This document shows positions 2,619 through 31,463 of a stretch of DNA of 64,000 nt, piece by piece. Within the stretch, counting starts at the first letter, position 1; every line of letters starts with the position of its first letter. The stretch is from a virus. Lineage: Duplodnaviria; Heunggongvirae; Uroviricota; Caudoviricetes. The position numbers and the translations under genes are program-made. The stretch lies in IMG/VR virus record IMGVR_UViG_2541047913_000007; one strand, given 5' to 3'. The notes under the pieces were generated by a model. That model saw nothing but the letters and a program-made list of their open reading frames with translations. It was not told the DNA's origin and did not search any database.

Positions 2619-2939
2619 TCAGGACTGAAGGCGTCTGTAACAACCGAACTGATAGTCTGCCAGCCCCGCCATAACAAGCTGGGTCAGTATTAACTGGCAG
2701 CGTTCACGTGAAAGGTAAGTATTCTGCGCAATCTCCCCGACTGTCGCCGGTTCGGTGGCACTTAATTCATTAAACACCACTCTGGCGGTTTCGGTCATAT
2801 CCTGCTGTTTTAGCATGTCTTTTTCCATTTTCTGGTTAACGTAACATACCAATAACTCTTGTCGGAAAAGCCAGCAAGCTGAAAGACCGGTATTCGCAAC
2901 CACCAGCGCGTTTAATGTTCTGTGCCGTTTTTCAGGCAT
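2619..2939 (-). CDS. Hypothetical small protein, possible winged-helix DNA-binding fold, in the position occupied by stx in Stx phages; start uncertain
   Basis: ORF-track 106 aa; ATG abuts the U-tract of the upstream terminator so the true start may be an internal Met. Confidence 0.4.
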   Translation of the reverse strand: MPEKRHRTLNALVVANTGLSACWLFRQELLVCYVNQKMEKDMLKQQDMTETARVVFNELSATEPATVGEIAQNTYLSRERCQLILTQLVMAGLADYQFGCYRRLQS

Positions 2940-2963
2940 AAAAAAACCCGCAAAAAGCGGGCT
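2940..2963 (-). terminator. tR'-like intrinsic terminator downstream of Q (hairpin cccgctttttgcggg plus U7 on minus strand)
   Basis: Perfect 5-bp GC stem and 7 T on minus strand, ~80 nt after the Q stop. Confidence 0.6.
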
Positions 2964-3040
2964 CTTTCAAATGTCCATGTCTGCTATTCGCCTCGTGGTA
3001 CGGCTTTGCGAAGCGTACCGGAATTGAAGCAGTTTTTACG
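2964..3040 (-). promoter_or_regulatory. Putative late promoter pR'/qut region between Q stop and tR'-like terminator
   Basis: Position only, by analogy with lambda Q-pR'-tR' organisation. Confidence 0.3.
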
Positions 3041-5475: not shown

Positions 5476-5631
5476 TTACTCCTCAGGTTCGTAAGCTGTG
5501 AAGACAGCGACCTCCGTCTGGCCGGTTCGGATTCGTACCTCGCAGAGGTCTTTCCGCGTTACCAGTGCCGTCACAATGACGGTAATACAGATGACGATCA
5601 GGGCGACTAACATCGCCTTTTGCTGCTTCAT
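5476..5631 (-). CDS. hok: Hok/Gef family type I toxin (HokD/RelF-like, 51 aa)
   Basis: MKQQKAMLVALIVICITVIVTALVTRKDLCEVRIRTGQTEVAVFTAYEPEE is near-identical to E. coli HokD. Confidence 0.9.
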   Translation of the reverse strand: MKQQKAMLVALIVICITVIVTALVTRKDLCEVRIRTGQTEVAVFTAYEPEE

Positions 5632-5639
5632 AGCCTGCT

Positions 5640-5720
5640 TCTCCTTGCCTTTCGGCGTGTAAGAGGCTAACCTACATGTGACTAGCATGAAATTGGCCTC
5701 AGATTAATGTTAAGCGTCCT
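5640..5720 (+). ncRNA. Putative Sok-like antisense RNA region opposite the hok/mok leader (position inferred, not delimited)
   Basis: Established hok/sok architecture; no boundaries verified in sequence. Confidence 0.25.
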
Positions 5721-5867
5721 GCAAGACGCATAATGTTAACTGGGGCTTTTCTCTATCTGCCGTTGGTGTTCATGCCCGAGGCAGATAGCCTCAAGCACCC
5801 GCAGCAATTCTACTTAACTCACGTCACCTCGCCAATATGAAATCAATCAGAAAGGTGATCCATAAAA

Positions 5868-11725: not shown

Positions 11726-12281
11726 CCTCCTGAGGGTTGGTAATTAAGGAGTTCTCCACGGGTCAGGTGGAGTGCGTGCGCCGGACACGGGTGAGCATCC
11801 GGCACTGACAGTTTACTGAAAGGATATGTCCCTGAAAAGTCAGGGCATAACGCGAAAGCGCACGGCGAAATTGGTCTCTCTGTACGGTGTCGTTAAATTT
11901 AGTTCGACCGTGCACTTCCGGTTGTGGCACTCCGCGAAATGGCGCGGCGGTAAGTATGGCTGGGGTTTCCTCCATTGCTCCAGAAAATGCACCGGGTTGT
12001 CAGGTTGACCATACGCTTAAGTGACAGCCCCGCCACAATACCCATGCGTAGTCTTTGGTGGCATCAGTTCTACTCCGTGACTGCTCTGCCACCCTTTTTA
12101 AAGTGAATTTTGTGATGCGGTGAATGCGGCTATGCGCACGCGGAACAGTTAAAACCGTAAAGTGGTCTTTTACGGGGCGTAACGGGCATCCTTCTGTATT
12201 CCGGCGTTAATTGTTAACTGGTTAACGTCACCTGGAGGCACCAGGCACTGCATCACAAAATTCATTGTTGAGGACGCGATA

Positions 12282-24668: not shown

Positions 24669-27095
24669 ATGATGAAAATCCATACCACAGAGGCGCTCAT
24701 GAAGGCTGAAATCAGCCGTAGAAGTCTGATGAAAACCTCCGCACTTGGCAGTCTTGCGCTGGCAAGCAGTGCTTTCACTCTGCCATTTTCTCAAATGGTC
24801 CGGGCGGCAGAGGCTCCGGTAGAAGAGAAAGCGGTCTGGAGTTCCTGCACCGTTAACTGCGGGAGCCGCTGTCTGTTACGTTTGCATGTGAAAGATGACA
24901 CCGTGTACTGGGTGGAGTCTGATACGACAGGTGACGACGTCTACGGTAATCATCAGGTTCGCGCGTGTTTACGCGGGCGCTCTATCCGCCGACGGATGAA
25001 TCATCCTGATAGGTTGAAATATCCCATGAAGCGCGTCGGCAAACGCGGTGAAGGTAAATTTGAATGGATAAGTTGGGACGAAGCCCTGGATACCATCAGT
25101 GATAATCTTCGGCGGATCCTAAAAGATTACGGCAATGAGGCTGTACATGTCCTGTACGGAACAGGCGTAGATGGCGGAAACATCACCAACTCAAACGTCC
25201 CGTACCGTCTGATGAACTCTTGCGGTGGTTTTCTCAGTCGCTATGGCAGCTACAGTACCGCACAGATCAGTGCCGCAATGAGTTATATGTTCGGTGCCAA
25301 TGATGGCAACAGCCCGGATGATATCGCCAATACGAAACTGGTCGTTATGTTCGGAAATAACCCGGCAGAAACGCGGATGAGCGGCGGTGGTGTCACTTAC
25401 TACGTCGAGCAAGCCCGCGAACGTTCAAACGCACGCATGATCGTCATCGATCCACGTTATAACGACACAGCTGCCGGGCGTGAAGATGAATGGCTGCCCA
25501 TTCGCCCAGGCACCGATGGCGCACTGGCCTGTGCGATTGCCTGGGTACTGATTACTGAAAACATGGTCGATCAGCCATTTCTCGACAAATATTGTGTTGG
25601 TTACGATGAAAAAACTCTGCCCGCCAACGCACCACGTAACGCGCATTATAAAGCCTATATTCTGGGCGAAGGGCCTGACGGCATAGCTAAAACGCCGGAA
25701 TGGGCAGCAAAAATCACCAGCATCCCGGCAGAAAAAATTATCCAGTTGGCACGAGAGATCGGTTCAGCAAAACCTGCTTATATTTGTCAGGGTTGGGGGC
25801 CACAACGACATTCCAACGGCGAGCAAACGTCCCGCGCTATTGCCATGCTTTCCGTTCTCACCGGTAACGTCGGCATAAACGGCGGCAACTCAGGTGTACG
25901 CGAAGGTAGCTGGGATCTGGGGGTAGAATGGTTCCCGATGCTTGAGAACCCTGTTAAAACGCAGATTTCCGTCTTTACATGGACAGATGCCATCGACCAT
26001 GGTAAGGAAATGACCGCGACCCGTGATGGTGTTCGTGGAAAAGAAAAACTGGATGTCCCCATCAAGTTTTTATGGTGCTACGCCAGTAACACATTGATCA
26101 ATCAACATGGCGACATCAATCACACCCATGAGGTGCTTCAGGATGACAGCAAGTGCGAGATGATTGTTGGCATTGACCACTTCATGACGGCCTCGGCTAA
26201 GTATTGCGATATCCTGTTGCCCGACCTGATGCCAACAGAGCAAGAAGACCTTATCTCTCATGAATCTGCAGGGAATATGGGCTATGTGATCCTCGCCCAA
26301 CCCGCAACCTCTGCAAAATTTGAACGCAAACCCATCTACTGGATGCTGAGTGAAGTCGCCAAACGCTTAGGACCAGACGTTTATCAAACCTTTACTGAAG
26401 GTCGCAGTCAGCATGAATGGATCAAATATCTCCATGCGAAAACGAAGGAACGTAACCCTGAGATGCCCGACTACGAGGAGATGAAAACGACCGGGATCTT
26501 TAAGAAAAAATGCCCGGAAGAACACTACGTCGCTTTCCGCGCATTCCGTGAAGATCCCCAGGCAAACCCGTTGAAAACACCTTCGGGGAAAATCGAAATT
26601 TATTCTGAACGACTGGCGAAGATTGCGGATACCTGGGAATTGAAAAAAGATGAAATTATTCATCCCCTTCCAGCTTATACGCCAGGTTTTGATGGCTGGG
26701 ACGATCCCCTGCGGAAAACCTATCCACTGCAGTTAACGGGCTTCCACTACAAGGCGCGTACCCACTCCAGCTACGGCAATATTGATGTGTTACAGCAGGC
26801 CTGCCCACAAGAGGTGTGGATCAACCCCATTGATGCTCAGGCTCGCGGTATCCGTCATGGCGATACCGTGCGGGTATTTAACAATAATGGAGAAATGCTG
26901 ATTGCCGCAAAAGTGACTCCGCGTATTCTGCCTGGCGTTACCGCCATCGGGCAAGGTGCGTGGCTTAAAGCGGATATGTTTGGTGACCGGGTCGATCACG
27001 GCGGCAGTATCAATATTCTGACCTCTCACCGCCCTTCACCGCTGGCAAAGGGAAACCCGTCGCACAGCAATCTTGTCCAGATCGAAAAGGTTTAA
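24669..27095 (+). CDS. ynfF: Molybdopterin oxidoreductase YnfF (paralogue of YnfE)
   Basis: 808 aa; Tat motif SRRSLMK; CTVNCGSRC. Confidence 0.9.
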   Translation: MMKIHTTEALMKAEISRRSLMKTSALGSLALASSAFTLPFSQMVRAAEAPVEEKAVWSSCTVNCGSRCLLRLHVKDDTVYWVESDTTGDDVYGNHQVRACLRGRSIRRRMNHPDRLKYPMKRVGKRGEGKFEWISWDEALDTISDNLRRILKDYGNEAVHVLYGTGVDGGNITNSNVPYRLMNSCGGFLSRYGSYSTAQISAAMSYMFGANDGNSPDDIANTKLVVMFGNNPAETRMSGGGVTYYVEQARERSNARMIVIDPRYNDTAAGREDEWLPIRPGTDGALACAIAWVLITENMVDQPFLDKYCVGYDEKTLPANAPRNAHYKAYILGEGPDGIAKTPEWAAKITSIPAEKIIQLAREIGSAKPAYICQGWGPQRHSNGEQTSRAIAMLSVLTGNVGINGGNSGVREGSWDLGVEWFPMLENPVKTQISVFTWTDAIDHGKEMTATRDGVRGKEKLDVPIKFLWCYASNTLINQHGDINHTHEVLQDDSKCEMIVGIDHFMTASAKYCDILLPDLMPTEQEDLISHESAGNMGYVILAQPATSAKFERKPIYWMLSEVAKRLGPDVYQTFTEGRSQHEWIKYLHAKTKERNPEMPDYEEMKTTGIFKKKCPEEHYVAFRAFREDPQANPLKTPSGKIEIYSERLAKIADTWELKKDEIIHPLPAYTPGFDGWDDPLRKTYPLQLTGFHYKARTHSSYGNIDVLQQACPQEVWINPIDAQARGIRHGDTVRVFNNNGEMLIAAKVTPRILPGVTAIGQGAWLKADMFGDRVDHGGSINILTSHRPSPLAKGNPSHSNLVQIEKV

Positions 27096-27105
27096 AGAGT
27101 AGCCC

Positions 27106-27219
27106 ATGACCACACAATATGGATTTTTTATCGATTCCAGCCGCTGTACTGGCTGTAAAACCTGCGAACTGGCGTGCAAAGATTTTAAAGTTGGTTACGT
27201 ATCGTTTAAAATCAATTAG
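27106..27219 (+). pseudogene. ynfG: ynfG truncated after ~27 codons by prophage 2 insertion (ferredoxin-type Fe-S subunit)
   Basis: MTTQYGFFIDSSRCTGCKTCELACKD then unrelated sequence and stop after 37 aa. Confidence 0.8.
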
Positions 27220-27269
27220 ATAGCCCGTCATTTCTGCGCTCACACGTCCCAACATTGAAAAACATGCAA

Positions 27270-27312
27270 AGCTTTGTAAGCCAATGCAAAGCTTTGTGTG
27301 TCTCACTTTTGT
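27270..27312. repeat. Direct repeat atgcaaagctttgt x2 near prophage 2 end (possible integrase arm-type sites)
   Basis: Two copies 22 bp apart about 90 bp inside the junction. Confidence 0.3.
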
Positions 27313-27634
27313 CCCAATACCAATCCGAATCCACCCTTTGTCATCATTGAGAAATGGCAAGGAAGAAAAGGATGTTACTGCACGATTTGACAAATCCGCC
27401 AGAGCTATCGCATACTGATCGCACTGAACAAATAAGCGGTCTCCGCACCCGATAGCTTTGCGGCTTTTTTATGCCTGCAATTTGGCATAGTTACATCCGT
27501 ACAAAGGTCGGGTGGAGAGGCGTAATACAACACCCGCAAGGGGAATATGCCCAGAGCTTCTTATTTGGCTCAGTTGACACCCGACCGCCAGCTACTAACT
27601 GGCGGTTATAAACTAAACAAATAAGGAGGTCATC

Positions 27635-27919
27635 ATGACCAGTCAACTCATCCCCGTATTCAACGGTTCTATCTCAAACCAAGCAGCCCTTCTATGCAAT
27701 GCTCGCAATCTACACGCTTTCCTTGGGGTTGGTAAACGCTTTGCATCGTGGATAACAGAACGTATTGCTGAATATGGTTTCGTTGAAAAACAGGACTATA
27801 TGATTGCTTCCCAAATTCGGGAAGCAAAAGGTAGAGGCGGTCACAACCGCAAGGAATACCACCTCACCCTCGACACAGCCAAAGAGCTTGCGATGGTTGA
27901 CGACTGCGTCCAATACTGA
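27635..27919 (+). CDS. AntA-domain antirepressor-like protein, short copy (94 aa)
   Basis: MTSQLIPVFNGS...EYHLTLDTAKELAMV; identical RBS ataaggaggtcatcATG as second copy. Confidence 0.6.
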   Translation: MTSQLIPVFNGSISNQAALLCNARNLHAFLGVGKRFASWITERIAEYGFVEKQDYMIASQIREAKGRGGHNRKEYHLTLDTAKELAMVDDCVQY

Positions 27920-28168
27920 CTATACTCCGCGCCGAGGCCTCGAAAACCTCCCAAAAGCGGATTAAACCAACCCCGTCAGTGTTGGATTTTTTATGCCTGT
28001 TATTCAGTGATAGCACAGTGTGCGGTCACATCCCCGATCAATGTCGGGAGGGCGACGAATACAACACCCGCAAGGGGAATAAGTCCGCGGTATCTTTTGG
28101 GCCGTTTCGAGCCTCCCGGCACCACATCTTGTGGTGGCATTTCTCGAAAAAAGCCAAAGGAGGTCATC

Positions 28169-28798
28169 ATGACCACTCAACTCATCCCTGTGTTTGAAGG
28201 TACAATCTCAAATGAACCTACGCTTCTGGTGAACGCGCGTGATTTGCATGGATTTTTAGAGGTAGGTAAAGATTTTTCTAACTGGATACGGGCCAGGCTA
28301 AACGAGTATGGATTCGTAGAAAATTTAGACTACATTCTATTTTCGCCAAATTTGGCGAAAACTCCAGGCCGCCGCCGCAAGGAATACCACCTCACCCTCG
28401 ACACAGCCAAAGAGCTTGCGATGGTTGAACGTAACGAAAAAGGTCGCCAGATCCGCCGCTACTTCATCGAGTGCGAAAAGAAACTTCGCAACATTCAGCC
28501 AGTACAAGCAGAACCACAGCCGCAATTCACAGCCGAGGAAATCATCCTCCTTTGCTACATGCAGCTCTGGATGGAAAAAGCCCAGGACCTCAGCAAACAC
28601 CTGTATCCCATCATGAAAGAGCTGAACTCCTCATACACGAACAAGCTGTATGACATTGCGTTTGAGACCATCTACATGGTGACGAAGAACAGAGATGCGT
28701 TACTGAGGGAAGTAACACGTCTCGACATGTCAAGTTCCGTTATCCAACGAGCCATGCCAATGCTGAAAAGCCTGCGGGCAAGGCAATTCGAATTCTGA
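28169..28798 (+). CDS. AntA/AntB-type antirepressor-like protein (209 aa)
   Basis: MTTQLIPVFEGTISNEPTLLVNARDLHGFLEVGKDFSNWI...KEYHLTLDTAKELAMVER. Confidence 0.65.
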   Translation: MTTQLIPVFEGTISNEPTLLVNARDLHGFLEVGKDFSNWIRARLNEYGFVENLDYILFSPNLAKTPGRRRKEYHLTLDTAKELAMVERNEKGRQIRRYFIECEKKLRNIQPVQAEPQPQFTAEEIILLCYMQLWMEKAQDLSKHLYPIMKELNSSYTNKLYDIAFETIYMVTKNRDALLREVTRLDMSSSVIQRAMPMLKSLRARQFEF

Positions 28799-28802
28799 AA
28801 CT

Positions 28803-28828
28803 AAAGGAGCTTCGGCTCCTTTTTTCAT
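28803..28828 (+). terminator. Intrinsic terminator after ant copy 2 (ggagcttcggctcc plus T6)
   Basis: Perfect hairpin and T-tract. Confidence 0.65.
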
Positions 28829-28994
28829 GCCTGAACGACAACGCCGCTGAAATCGAAGAGTTAATACAATAAAGAGAAGAGCTCAGTACATTAGATAAAC
28901 ATTTTTTATCATTATCTCATTGCCTTTATTCAAAAAAATAGTTACATAACGTTACTAGGTAAAATGCAAACCCTCGCTATTTTTATCAGATTGT

Positions 28995-30221
28995 ATGCCG
29001 GTAACTATAACAAAAATCAGAACTGGAGAAGATGTTTTGTCAGCAGCCATTCACCGCATTGAATGGTTGTTTGAAACATTCTCTTCTGTATGTTTATCTT
29101 TTTCTGGCGGTAAAGATTCCACTGTACTTTTCCATCTTGTAGCCGAAGTGGCCTACAGGAAGAAACGTCGTTTTTCTGTATTGTTCATTGACTGGGAAGC
29201 CCAGTATCAATGCACCATTGATCATATACAGAAGATGCGGATGATGTACCAAGATGTAACAGATACCTTTTACTGGGTTGCACTTCCCCTGACGACAGTA
29301 AATGGTGTCTCGCAGTTTCAGCCTGAGTGGATATGCTGGGAGCCCGGTGTAGAGTGGGTTCGACAGCCACCGGAAGATGCTATTACTGATATGGCGTATT
29401 TCCCCTTTTACCGCTACGCCATGACTTTTGAAGAATTTGTCCCAGCTTTTTCTTCCTGGTTCGCAAGTAACCAATGTAGCGTGGCAATACTGACTGGAGT
29501 CCGCGCGGATGAATCTCTTAACAGATTTATGGGACTGGTTTCCCAACGAAAACTGAGATATGCAGATGATAAACCCTGGACCACGGCGTCACCTGAAGGT
29601 TTTTACTACACCATGTATCCGCTGTATGACTGGAAAACCAACGATATCTGGGTATATAACGCTAAAACCTGTGCAATCTACAATCCTCTGTATGATTTGA
29701 TGTACCGTGCAGGCATTCCTCTACGTAATATGCGTGTCTGTGAGCCTTTTGGCCCGGAACAGCGTAAGGGACTATGGCTTTATCATGTTCTGGAGCCAGA
29801 AACTTGGGCACGGATGTGTGAACGAGTATCTGGTGCTGCCAGTGGGGCTCTTTATGCCAATGAAAGCGGGGCCTATTTTGCCCTGCGTAAACGGATGTCA
29901 AAACCATCCCATCATACCTGGCGCAGCTATGCGTTCTTCCTGCTGGACGTAATGCCGGAAAGAACGGCTGAACACTACCGCAACAAGATAGCAGTTTACC
30001 TGCGCTGGTATCAGAACCGGGGATTCCCGGATGATATCCCGGATGAACAGGAAAATGATCTGGGCTGCCGGGATGTTCCCTCCTGGCGACGTATTTGTAA
30101 GACTCTCATAAAGAATGATTTCTGGTGCCGAACGCTCTCCTTCAGCCCCAACAAACCCCGGCACTATGAACGTTACCTGCAGCGTATGAATGAAAGGAGG
30201 AAGGAATGGGGAATTCTGTGA
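28995..30221 (+). CDS. ibrA: IbrA-like PP-loop ATP pyrophosphatase (PAPS reductase family with C-terminal extension)
   Basis: 408 aa; PP-loop SFSGGKDS near N-terminus. Confidence 0.65.
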   Translation: MPVTITKIRTGEDVLSAAIHRIEWLFETFSSVCLSFSGGKDSTVLFHLVAEVAYRKKRRFSVLFIDWEAQYQCTIDHIQKMRMMYQDVTDTFYWVALPLTTVNGVSQFQPEWICWEPGVEWVRQPPEDAITDMAYFPFYRYAMTFEEFVPAFSSWFASNQCSVAILTGVRADESLNRFMGLVSQRKLRYADDKPWTTASPEGFYYTMYPLYDWKTNDIWVYNAKTCAIYNPLYDLMYRAGIPLRNMRVCEPFGPEQRKGLWLYHVLEPETWARMCERVSGAASGALYANESGAYFALRKRMSKPSHHTWRSYAFFLLDVMPERTAEHYRNKIAVYLRWYQNRGFPDDIPDEQENDLGCRDVPSWRRICKTLIKNDFWCRTLSFSPNKPRHYERYLQRMNERRKEWGIL

Positions 30222-30850
30222 CACCAGAGGTGGAGGTGCTGAGCAAGATGATTCGACAGTACTTCAGTCAGGAACAATCTGAAGAGAAAACCATACAGGC
30301 CCTGAACCATCTCCGCTGCGTACTCCATGAGATCAGCCCCTTTGCTCAAGAACCAGTGGACTGTGTGCTGTGGGTAAAAGCGGATGAAATTGTCGCTAAC
30401 GATTATAATCCCAATGTCATGGCCCCAAGCGAAAAAAAATTACTGAAACAATCTCTGGAAAAAGACGGTTTTACTCAACCAATTGTTGTTTCGGAAGAAA
30501 CAAGCCATTACCTGGTGGTGGATGGTTTTCATAGGCAGTTACTAGGTAGAAGAACAGTTACTGGAAAACGCCTGAAAGGCTGGCTACCAGTAACCTGTAT
30601 TAATCCAGACCGAAAGGGACAAACCTCACGTATTGCCGCGACTATCCGACATAACAGAGCCAGGGGGAAACACCAGATAACCTCAATGTCTGATATTGTC
30701 AGAGATCTTTCACGTCTTGGCTGGACTGATGAACGTATCGGAACAGAACTGGGGATGGACCAGGATGAAGTTCTGAGGTTAAAGCAGATTAGCGGGCTAA
30801 CGGAGTTATTTCAGCAGGCAGATTTCAGCCCTGCATGGACTGTTACATAA
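30206..30850 (+). CDS. ibrB: IbrB-like ParB/sulfiredoxin-fold nuclease-domain protein
   Basis: 214 aa; ANDYNPN and VVDGFHR ParB-N-like motifs; 16-nt overlap with ibrA-like. Confidence 0.65.
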   Translation: MGNSVTPEVEVLSKMIRQYFSQEQSEEKTIQALNHLRCVLHEISPFAQEPVDCVLWVKADEIVANDYNPNVMAPSEKKLLKQSLEKDGFTQPIVVSEETSHYLVVDGFHRQLLGRRTVTGKRLKGWLPVTCINPDRKGQTSRIAATIRHNRARGKHQITSMSDIVRDLSRLGWTDERIGTELGMDQDEVLRLKQISGLTELFQQADFSPAWTVT

Positions 30851-30938
30851 AGTTAGGTTAGGCCTGTGGAGCCGGGGAATCGGAATTAAACATCTTCCCT
30901 CCCCGGTAAATACAAATAAGGGCTGAACATCATCCCGA

Positions 30939-31463
30939 CTACCTCAGATCACCTAATAATATATCAAGATTATTTTGCGCATTAATGCTATTCGCCATTA
31001 CTGTTGCTGCTTCTGGCAACTTTCCAAGAGCAATAAATATATTCTTAAGGCTGATTGGAATTGATGAACCATGCGGATCGCGCCACTCACCGCAAATTCT
31101 GTGAGTTTCATCACAAAGCCTGAACGCATCCCAACCTCCATATTGACCAAAAATTATGTCCATTGACTCTATTTCTGCGGGCGATAACTCCCCCAGCTCA
31201 TCAACAGAAGAAAATGTACGCCACATTTCAACCTTATGATCCGCTACATCAGATATCCATGATTCCCACGGACTGTACTCGTTTTCACTTCCATCCTTAA
31301 CCAAAGAATATGTCTGCGATAAAACGGGTCCTTTGTTCATAGAGAAATAATGATCACCACTAATGGGAAAACCATACAACTCCATTGCTTTGCGGTCAGA
31401 GAGATACATCAGCTTAATGAAACGCATAGATCCGCCATGTTTTTTCAGCAAATACGCTGCCAT
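30939..31463 (-). CDS. Panacea (DUF4065, SocA-like) domain protein
   Basis: 174 aa; N-terminal MAAYLLKKHGGSMRFIKLMYLSDR typical of DUF4065. Confidence 0.55.
   Translation of the reverse strand: MAAYLLKKHGGSMRFIKLMYLSDRKAMELYGFPISGDHYFSMNKGPVLSQTYSLVKDGSENEYSPWESWISDVADHKVEMWRTFSSVDELGELSPAEIESMDIIFGQYGGWDAFRLCDETHRICGEWRDPHGSSIPISLKNIFIALGKLPEAATVMANSINAQNNLDILLGDLR

Follow-up and report, generated by a model that had tools for sequence, protein, structure and literature searches.

The 64,000-nucleotide (nt) stretch of DNA analyzed here, referred to as the window (IMG/VR virus record IMGVR_UViG_2541047913_000007), contains two neighboring genes for putative antirepressors, each behind a conserved leader. 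A first-pass annotation, made from the sequence alone, had described the pair as tandemly duplicated cassettes, possibly under attenuator or small RNA (sRNA) control as in phage P22 ant/sar. The two AntA genes that it had called, of 94 and 209 amino acids (aa), were found in place, and both match Pfam AntA (PF08346), gene 1 with 87.8 bits (E 7e-25) and gene 2 with 92.3 bits (E 3e-26) against a cut-off of 27. The first copy indeed lacks the C-terminal domain, since P22_AR_C was matched in gene 2 only (29.5 bits against a cut-off of 22.4). The antirepressor name of both products is a domain annotation, and the function is putative. The genes and the parts of the two modules are listed below, where P1 to P4 are helices of the leader RNA, a' and b' are its 3' junction strand (J3/1) and P3 loop, a2 and b2 are the sites ahead of the gene, over or near its ribosome-binding site (RBS), and a1 and b1 are upstream copies of these sites.

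27387-27416 (+): promoter-like site of module 1 (TTGACA, 18 nt, CATACT), consensus match 10/12; predicted start near 27423, at a1
27423-27427 (+): a1, ACTGA
27429-27436 (+): b1, CAAATAAG, then the conserved AAGCGG; module 1 a1b1 complementary to a'/b' (-17.1 kcal/mol)
27443-27477 (+): hairpin CCGCA...TGCGG with U6 and ATGCCTG, counterpart of the IsrK and phage P1 leader terminator
27506-27594 (+): three-way-junction RNA, RF02221 (sRNA-Xcc1), 69.1 bits; P1, 27506-27514 with 27578-27586; P3 loop (b'), 27558-27567; J3/1 (a'), 27570-27577
27584-27606 (+): P4 hairpin between the RNA and the downstream targets; an equivalent hairpin occurs in most compared leaders
27611-27629 (+): a2 (AACTA) and b2 (CAAATAAGGAGG), b2 lying over the Shine-Dalgarno (SD) sequence AAGGAGG at 27623-27629
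27635-27919 (+): gene 1, 94 aa, AntA domain only; truncated antirepressor, "partial" in RefSeq
27897-27926 (+): promoter-like site of module 2 (TTGACG, 18 nt, TATACT), straddling the gene 1 junction; predicted start near 27933
27934-27960 (+): a1 hairpin GAGG...CCTC, with b1 and AAGCGG; a1 is CTCGAAA (27939-27945), in the loop
27950-27957 (+): b1, CCCAAAAG, then AAGCGG; module 2 a1b1 complementary to a'/b' (-19.1 kcal/mol)
27967-27999 (+): hairpin CCAAC, loop CCCGTCAGT, GTTGG, with U6 and ATGCCTG; the loop CCCGUYAG is kept in many loci
28043-28128 (+): three-way-junction RNA, RF02221, 73.4 bits; P1, 28043-28051 with 28112-28120; b', 28092-28100; a', 28105-28111; 3' tail ACC, 28121-28123
28120-28137 (+): P4 hairpin, from RNA folding
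28143-28149 (+): a2, CTCGAAA
28153-28163 (+): b2, GCCAAAGGAGG, over the SD at 28157-28163
28169-28798 (+): gene 2, 209 aa, AntA and P22_AR_C; RefSeq name "phage antirepressor Ant"
28806-28833 (+): strong terminator GGAGC-TTCG-GCTCC with T6, ending CATGCCTG, which closes module 2

Both leaders are full-length matches to the Rfam family RF02221, sRNA-Xcc1 (model positions 1-87 of 87), and since both copies score above the gathering score of 53 bits, chance is excluded for the leader. The two matches to a curated covariance model confirmed the proposal that the leaders are structured, conserved regulatory RNAs. The 24-nt block AATACAACACCCGCAAGGGGAATA, reported as shared by the two genes, is identical in both copies (27524-27547 and 28058-28081) and forms the core of the family, and the RBS stretch AAGGAGGTCATCATGACCA is also identical in both (27623-27641 and 28157-28175). 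The RF02221 model describes a three-way junction with a closing stem P1, P2, P3 with a variable loop, a J3/1 strand of 6 to 7 nt, and a short 3' tail. Both RNAs, taken in isolation, fold to this structure (module 1, -35.8 kcal/mol, z -3.2). P2 (27523-27546 and 28057-28080) contains an invariant asymmetric internal loop (5' AUACAAYA, 3' GAA) and a GNRA-capped CCC/GGG tip. The loop stays unchanged between E. coli phages and the single hits in Acidobacteriota, in scans that required this core, and it may bind a factor.

A hairpin followed by TTTTTTATGCCTG precedes each leader, as the annotation had pointed out (27443-27477 and 27967-27999). The window has 4 motifs of the TTTTTTATGCCTG type (at most one mismatch), where 0.19 would be expected, and none of 100 shuffles reached this number. 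Of the terminator-like elements described, the hairpins and U-runs are present; both hairpins are weak (stems of 5 bp, loops of 9 to 11 nt), and a simple terminator scan did not call them. The stem of 4 to 6 bp covaries, as the upstream hairpin stems differ between loci yet still pair.

In Xanthomonas, sRNA-Xcc1 is an 88-nt RNA with mapped ends, published as integron-encoded and trans-acting, under HrpG/HrpX control and with targets unknown (PMC2996969; Chen et al. 2011, by the title that PMC3531072 cites). The RNA was noted in passing upstream of symE in Xanthomonas integron cassettes (bioRxiv 10.1101/2025.06.18.660453), lies upstream of an ORF6N gene in APSE phages (bioRxiv 10.1101/2020.03.17.996009), and is present in five tandem copies in a Xylella island (PMC12189769).

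Viral contigs were scanned for the core AATACAANACCCGNAAGGGGAAT, which gave at least 120 loci with 124 core instances. A scan of bacteria for the same core, with one genome per species, also gave at least 120 loci. The leader counts, domain tallies and pairing statistics below are drawn from among the matches listed. An ATG with an SD sequence followed 92 of the 124 viral instances at 85 to 145 nt after the core (mode, 102 to 120 nt). The 92 downstream phage proteins were all different and carried the Pfam domains KilA-N (20), AntA (18), P22_AR_N (14), Bro-N (14), Phage_pRha (Rha; 10), and ORF6N (8). The bacterial loci came from Gamma-, Beta-, and Alphaproteobacteria and from Desulfovibrio, with single hits in Acidobacteriota, Bacteroidota, and Verrucomicrobiota. 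An SD-preceded open reading frame (ORF) starting 60 to 200 nt from the core was found at 112 of the 120 listed, and 88 non-identical leaders had a core-to-start distance of 85 to 135 nt. The same antirepressor-type domains, mostly Bro-N, were present in 51 of the 112 bacterial downstream proteins, and the rest include one SymE and many small proteins without a Pfam match. The fixed distance between core and start codon, together with the gene association, therefore indicated that the RNA is a gene-tied 5' leader and not a free-standing gene.

In Pseudomonas loci (L123, L126, L146, L166, and others), the Bro-N gene starts ~180 to 190 nt past the core and not at ~110 nt. A small leader ORF like icd or orf45 would fit into the longer spacing, or the start may be mis-called.

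When the leaders were placed side by side, the P3 loop was complementary to a stretch ending in the SD, and J3/1 was complementary to a site that follows P4 and lies a few bases upstream of that stretch. Both pairs co-vary from locus to locus. In module 1, b' and b2 pair as UUCUUAUUUG (27558-27567) with CAAAUAAGGA (27618-27627) over 10 bp, and the whole a'b':a2b2 duplex has an energy of -18.8 kcal/mol. In module 2, the P3 loop CUUUUGG (28094-28100) pairs with CCAAAGG (28154-28160) in a b':b2 helix of 8 bp, and J3/1 UUUCGAG (28105-28111) pairs with CUCGAAA (28143-28149) in an a':a2 helix of 7 bp, with a duplex energy of -19.8 kcal/mol. The minimum-free-energy fold of the complete module 2 leader includes both the a':a2 and the b':b2 pairs.

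Since MAFFT alignments of whole leaders keep the 5' three-way junction in register but lose the register of a2 and b2, with helix shifts of 1 to 2 bases even among leaders of equal length, we used register-free duplex permutation tests. In the tests, the RNAduplex energy was calculated for every RNA segment against every target window, and the cognate combinations were compared with 5000 permutations. The P4 halves were left out, since including both inflates the cognate score. For 79 non-identical phage leaders, the energy of J3/1 with its target (a':a2) was -5.8 kcal/mol for cognate and -3.6 kcal/mol for permuted combinations (z=-11.1), and that of P3 with the SD window (b':b2) was -11.2 and -6.8 kcal/mol, respectively (z=-16.8). 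In both cases, 0 of 5000 permutations were as good. The negative control, P3 against the other window in the same 79 leaders, was not significant (z=+0.7). The phage leaders form 61 distinct helices of the a':a2 type (6.8 bp on average) and 68 of the b':b2 type (9.8 bp on average), and the b2 helices end 2 to 10 nt ahead of the AUG. The 88 bacterial leaders replicated the result (a':a2, z=-6.6; b':b2, z=-10.8; control, z=0.0). The P4 loops of several leaders (L064, L069, and L027) carry an extra a2 copy (e.g., UCUCAAAA) besides the a2 after P4.

This arrangement was compared with the immunity region immI of phages P1 and P7. The P1 record lists, in order, promoters, a1, b1, the c4 RNA (48343-48419), a2 (48423-48429), b2 (48452-48459), the icd start (48470), and ant1/ant2. 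The order on one strand is the same in P1/P7 and in the window: promoter, a1, b1, hairpin with U-run, RNA of ~80 nt, a2, b2/SD, gene. The Rfam C4 consensus is a three-way junction with a closing stem after UUAU, two hairpins, a 3' junction strand of 7 to 8 nt, and a CACC tail. In P1 c4, the junction strand is complementary to a2, and the loop of the second hairpin to b2. P1 c4 and sRNA-Xcc1 thus share the closing stem and the two hairpins, with a' located in the 3' junction and b' in the loop of the second hairpin, and the leaders are also alike in a UAU|G 5' flank and an (A)CC or RCC 3' tail. The 5' end of c4 is made by RNase P. The P1 sequence 48278-48305 (CCGCA...TGCGGTATTTTTGTGTCC) aligns with the module 1 hairpin (27443-27477), and the alignment runs through the terminator and the spacer (P1, CCGCA...CCGATATTGCGGTATTTTTGTGTCC ... 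GTTACGCCCGAATTAT|GGTGGGG; module 1, CCGCACCCGATAGCTTTGCGGCTTTTTTATGCC ... GTTACATCCGTACAAA|GGTCGGG). The isrK model matches the a1b1/terminator part of P1 and covers the hairpin and U-run between b1 and c4, which align with the window hairpin and TTTTTTATGCCTG.

From the collinearity with P1, we predicted a1 and b1 copies upstream of the window hairpins, and these were found in both modules. Across 69 leaders, the upstream copies were cognate-specific (a1, z=-9.7; b1, z=-12.6). The conserved AAGCGG is the end of b1 and imitates AAGGAGG.

There are also differences from phage P1. The closing stem is 9 bp in the window and ~17 bp in P1 c4. P2 has an invariant asymmetric internal loop in sRNA-Xcc1, whereas its c4 equivalent is a UUCG hairpin without such a loop. 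The extra hairpin precedes a2 in the window but stands between a2 and b2 in P1, and the targeted SD belongs to the antirepressor gene itself in the window but to the small upstream ORF icd in P1. It was reported that c4 binds the ant-operon mRNA near the RBS and blocks antirepressor synthesis, and that P1 and P7 are heteroimmune through different codes (PMC12197685). In P1/P7, and presumably in the window, the specificity lies in short complementary segments that differ between phages (PMC12197685).

Salmonella Gifsy-1 provides a second comparison. Transcripts from one promoter there have two fates: termination at the IsrK terminator yields a short RNA, and read-through yields a translationally inactive isrK-orf45-anrP mRNA, from which an ~80-nt RNA complementary to IsrK is processed. 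The short IsrK RNA switches translation on in trans (PMC4825925). The IsrK - STnc1160/orf45 - anrP arrangement resembles the design proposed for the window in having a short RNA at a leaky terminator, an antirepressor mRNA, and an intervening RNA of ~80 nt. It differs in that anrP translation is coupled to orf45, and activation by the short RNA has been demonstrated in Gifsy-1 but would apply to the window by analogy. According to the summary given in PMC4825925, the CI RNA of satellite phage P4, with seqA and seqC, is processed from an untranslated leader and pairs with complementary sequences on both sides of itself, like the RNA proposed for the window. The CI RNA, here likened by description only, causes premature transcription termination of replication genes and no occlusion of an antirepressor RBS.

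We therefore favor the explanation, with a probability of roughly 0.72, that each antirepressor gene lies behind a self-contained antisense-RNA module of the type of c4 (P1 immI) and Gifsy-1 IsrK, the RNA being a member of the sRNA-Xcc1 family. The family match, the fixed core-to-start distance, the cognate complementarity of a'/b' to a2/b2 and a1/b1, and the collinearity with P1 are observed, and from these we infer the direction of regulation. Each full module, of ~250 nt, would contain in order a promoter-like site, the a1/b1 decoys, a weak hairpin with a U-run serving as a leaky terminator, the RNA of ~87 nt, P4, a2, b2/SD, and the AUG. Judged from their positions, the two promoter-like sites (27387-27416 and 27897-27926) would place the transcription start directly at a1. 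In the ~87-nt RNA, the P3 loop (b') and the 3' junction strand (a') would be single-stranded, and the junction RNA would pair with a2 and b2/SD, so that ribosome binding is blocked and no Ant is made. It could act in cis, on the read-through transcript, or after excision, which is hinted at by the likeness of the UAU|G flank and the RCC tail to the c4 ends and by the 88-nt species in Xanthomonas (PMC2996969). Short a1b1 transcripts ending at 27470 or 27992 would titrate the RNA and thereby turn on translation in the manner of IsrK. The a'/b' code would set the specificity, and the many different a'/b' sequences would provide phage-specific heteroimmunity. By this analysis, the antirepressor is most likely kept silent.

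Several observations weigh against this explanation. The C4 (RF01695), c4-a1b1 (RF03163), and isrK (RF01394) models gave no match at E<=1 in 26500-29500, and the same covariance search finds C4 in P1 at 68.8 bits, where isrK and c4-a1b1 also match. sRNA-Xcc1 also stands outside the Rfam C4 clan. Homology to c4 consequently rests on the architecture and a short pairwise alignment, and we therefore classify the leaders as working like c4 and as members of RF02221, not of RF01695. The invariant P2 internal loop is without a counterpart in c4. The minimum-free-energy fold from RNAfold contains the SD-to-P3 pairing in only 18 of the 79 leaders, because the program cannot draw pseudoknots, in which the loop contacts the SD while P3 is kept. 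RNAfold of both window leaders does show a nested SD-P3 alternative; in the other cases, a pseudoknot or an interaction in trans is needed for the contacts. The full-leader folds are accordingly not counted as support. The Xanthomonas integron copies show P3 loop variation that no SD change compensates: loci L124, L148, and L170 have the loops CUAUGA, CUACUA, and CUACGU ahead of a constant SD region, and the founding members of the family thus follow the pairing rule only weakly. In the window itself, the a':a2 helix of module 1 is weak (~4 bp). Cross-pairing between the modules is asymmetric: the value of only -6.1 kcal/mol for the module 2 RNA with the module 1 target counts in favor of the explanation, but the module 1 RNA is predicted to pair with the module 2 target at -17.8 kcal/mol, nearly equal to its own, using P3-paired bases. 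Finally, the promoter-like sites are consensus matches only, with 5 found and 3.2 expected.

The main rival is a cis-only leader that senses a factor, as a riboswitch or protein-binding RNA, with a':a2 and b':b2 as its expression platform and with no processing or trans action. The 23-nt P2 core is invariant across phyla while the rest varies, which is typical of a binding pocket; the minimum-free-energy structure of both full window leaders is a nested alternative fold competing with P1 and P3; and a fixed core-to-start distance fits such a leader as well. However, a simple riboswitch would not be expected to have a1/b1 decoys and collinearity with P1 immI, Xanthomonas has a discrete RNA of 88 nt (PMC2996969), and the downstream genes have no common metabolic theme. 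We regard a cis-only sensor as rather improbable, but factor sensing is compatible with the antisense design, and the two could coexist.

A second alternative is that sRNA-Xcc1 is a free-standing gene for a trans-acting sRNA with unlinked mRNA targets, lying upstream of antirepressors by accident. Rfam lists RF02221 under the type "Gene; sRNA", a discrete 88-nt RNA occurs in Xanthomonas (PMC2996969), and unlinked bacterial and plant targets have been predicted for homologues (PMC12189769). The published Xanthomonas RNA belongs to the same covariance family as the window leaders, but it is described as trans-acting and not as an RBS-tied leader. On the other hand, a start codon follows at a fixed distance in 92 of the 124 phage instances, 112 of the 120 bacterial loci listed have an SD-preceded ORF 60 to 200 nt from the core, with 88 non-identical leaders at 85 to 135 nt, the pairing with the leader's own SD is cognate-specific through 68 different helices, and six antirepressor-type domains are strongly enriched among the proteins encoded downstream. 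These observations already disfavor a free-standing sRNA, which we consider very unlikely.

Least credible is the absence of any RNA regulation, with the repeats being promoter, terminator, and RBS sequences homogenized by phage recombination as DNA-level cassette boundaries: the module boundaries do coincide with mosaic breakpoints (27933-28183 and 27900), and the identical RBS and first five codons could reflect gene conversion, as could a 54-nt identical tract within the gene 1 and gene 2 coding regions (28375-28428), but recombination leaves both the compensatory variation of distant segments and the covariance-model match above a curated threshold unexplained.

Control of the P22 ant/sar kind was also considered. 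The sar transcript is made on the strand opposite ant, across the ant RBS. The window resembles this system in that an antirepressor would be silenced by a small RNA pairing with its ribosome-binding region, but the putative regulator lies on the same strand, upstream of the gene. A consensus scan of 27100-29100 found no opposite-strand promoter-like site in either leader, the only minus-strand site being at 27210-27182, outside the leaders, and sar-type control was rejected. Thus, of the earlier proposal, antisense control aimed at the antirepressor RBS is supported, while the P22 analogue does not fit, as the complementary elements are on the same strand. A classical terminator/antiterminator attenuator was not supported either, since the alternative GCGG/CCGC hairpin of module 1 has no counterpart in module 2.

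Other candidates were discarded. For a self-cleaving ribozyme, no known core was present and nothing was found in Rfam. An integron attC site or single-stranded-DNA promoter was set aside since the pairing partners include the SD and keep a constant spacing to the AUG, as expected for mRNA, and an HK022 put-like antitermination RNA would leave the SD complementarity unexplained. Pairing of the conserved hairpin loop CCCGUYAG with the 5' strand of stem P1 was good in module 1 but poor in module 2.

The sRNA-Xcc1 family, the AntA genes, and the c4/IsrK mechanism are each already known separately. In the Rfam clans and the literature searched, two points appear to be unrecorded: that sRNA-Xcc1 is a c4-type leader with a1/b1 and a2/b2 sites, and that in several phyla it precedes genes of the antirepressor type. 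The literature searched contained no paper that connects sRNA-Xcc1 with c4, IsrK, or antirepressor leaders.

A broader joint reading is tentative, and we consider it less probable than not. In it, sRNA-Xcc1 would be the most widespread c4-type phage immunity RNA, present in Pseudomonadota and Desulfovibrio with single hits in Acidobacteriota, Bacteroidota, and Verrucomicrobiota, and the ~250-nt module would be portable to any antirepressor-like gene. The P2 loop would dock a conserved host factor, coupling antirepressor release to the host state. Tandem modules with different a'/b' codes would act as two independently addressable switches for induction or anti-immunity, and the 94-aa AntA-only product would be a functional mini-antirepressor or a decoy.

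If the c4-type explanation is correct, "orphan" sRNA-Xcc1 copies, which are annotated automatically in many genomes as a trans-acting sRNA without known function, would be re-read as a phage immunity device. The RNA has been discussed as a virulence or inter-kingdom RNA (PMC12189769), and its primary target would instead be the adjacent gene, so that predicted targets elsewhere in the genome would need caution. Many lambdoid and Stx-type prophages would carry a second, RNA-based layer of immunity over their antirepressors, with a bearing on prophage induction and on cross-talk between Stx phages. The short a'/b' code would then allow one to predict which prophages silence or induce each other.

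The history of the two modules differs from the recent tandem duplication first suggested. The AntA coding regions of gene 1 and gene 2 are only ~70% identical, and each module is nearer to modules of other phages than to its neighbor: module 1 matches a single-module locus that has a full-length gene (L109) at 87.5% identity, and module 2 matches another locus (L009) at 98%. The homology common to single-module relatives begins at 27381-27387 for module 1, and that common to the modules of other genes begins at 27933/27934 for module 2. The idea of modular, cassette-like units was upheld, as module 2 (27933-28183) recurs at 80 to 87% identity ahead of genes with differing N-terminal domains, which fits cassette-like shuffling. 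BLAST breakpoints show that the similarity of gene 1 to its full-length relatives ends at 27900, at the start of the module 2 promoter-like site, and gene 1 was therefore truncated by recombination. Judged by sequence comparison, the two modules have different specificities and were brought in by recombination.

The annotation had named leaders without conserved structure, together with an inactive fragment as copy 1, as evidence that would speak against its proposal. The leaders do keep a conserved structure. Copy 1 is truncated, yet its ORF (ending ...AMVDDCVQY) is unbroken in three diverged variants, one of which differs from gene 1 by 15 synonymous and 22 non-synonymous codons.

About 30 nt past the U-run and CATGCCTG of the gene 2 terminator lies AATACAAT (28863-28870), which equals the first 8 bases of the RF02221 core. 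This site (window 28820-28875) may be the stump of a third module severed by the ibrAB-like insert. A terminator elsewhere in the window (2933-2990, minus strand; CCCGC-UUUUU-GCGGG with U7 and AUGCCUG) has the same tail as the ant modules and is followed, as there, by a small TGCC...GGCA inverted repeat. The next ORF encodes a small, unrelated protein, and no RF02221 RNA follows this terminator.

The window is E. coli chromosome, and 27380-28830 lies at the terminal end of a prophage that interrupts ynfG. E. coli strain EC2 matches the region 27190-28860 at 99.9% identity, and at least part of this region is present in 528 of 5426 complete E. coli genomes. The prophage/ynfG junction is near 27191. 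In EC2, the flank contains ynfF and then a 4Fe-4S gene (ynfG) broken off after its first 28 codons, followed by genes named "antA/AntB antirepressor (partial)" and "phage antirepressor Ant", a PAPS-reductase/IbrB-like pair, a Panacea-domain gene, an 8.4-kb LPD38 gene, and tail-fibre genes. This gene order with the cut ynfG therefore placed the antirepressor locus at the very end of the prophage. Among phage records, PhiR5_2 (97.6%) is nearest, together with many Stx-converting and Shigella phages that have one antirepressor gene or both.

In the window, the ant modules are directly followed downstream by an IbrA/IbrB-like pair (28995-31463; PAPS_reduct with DUF3440, and a weak ParB_N). A Panacea-domain gene follows on the opposite strand, and EC2 has the 8.4-kb gene for the LPD38 polyvalent protein. 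Just inside the prophage end, 70 to 110 nt from the ynfG junction, are two direct copies of ATGCAAAGCTTTGT (27262-27301), each with the palindrome AAAGCTTT. These repeats may be an arm site for a recombinase or accessory protein.

A second prophage remnant, lambdoid/Stx-like, was found at 1716-2464, 5626-5800, and 12043-12094 of the window. Its RNAs, all above the Rfam gathering scores, are AsxR (+), two tandem STnc100 copies (-), sok (-), and DicF (+). Upstream of ynfF in EC2 (L001, 8384-17422), an island of ~6.6 kb splits ynfE and carries a site-specific integrase and hypothetical genes.

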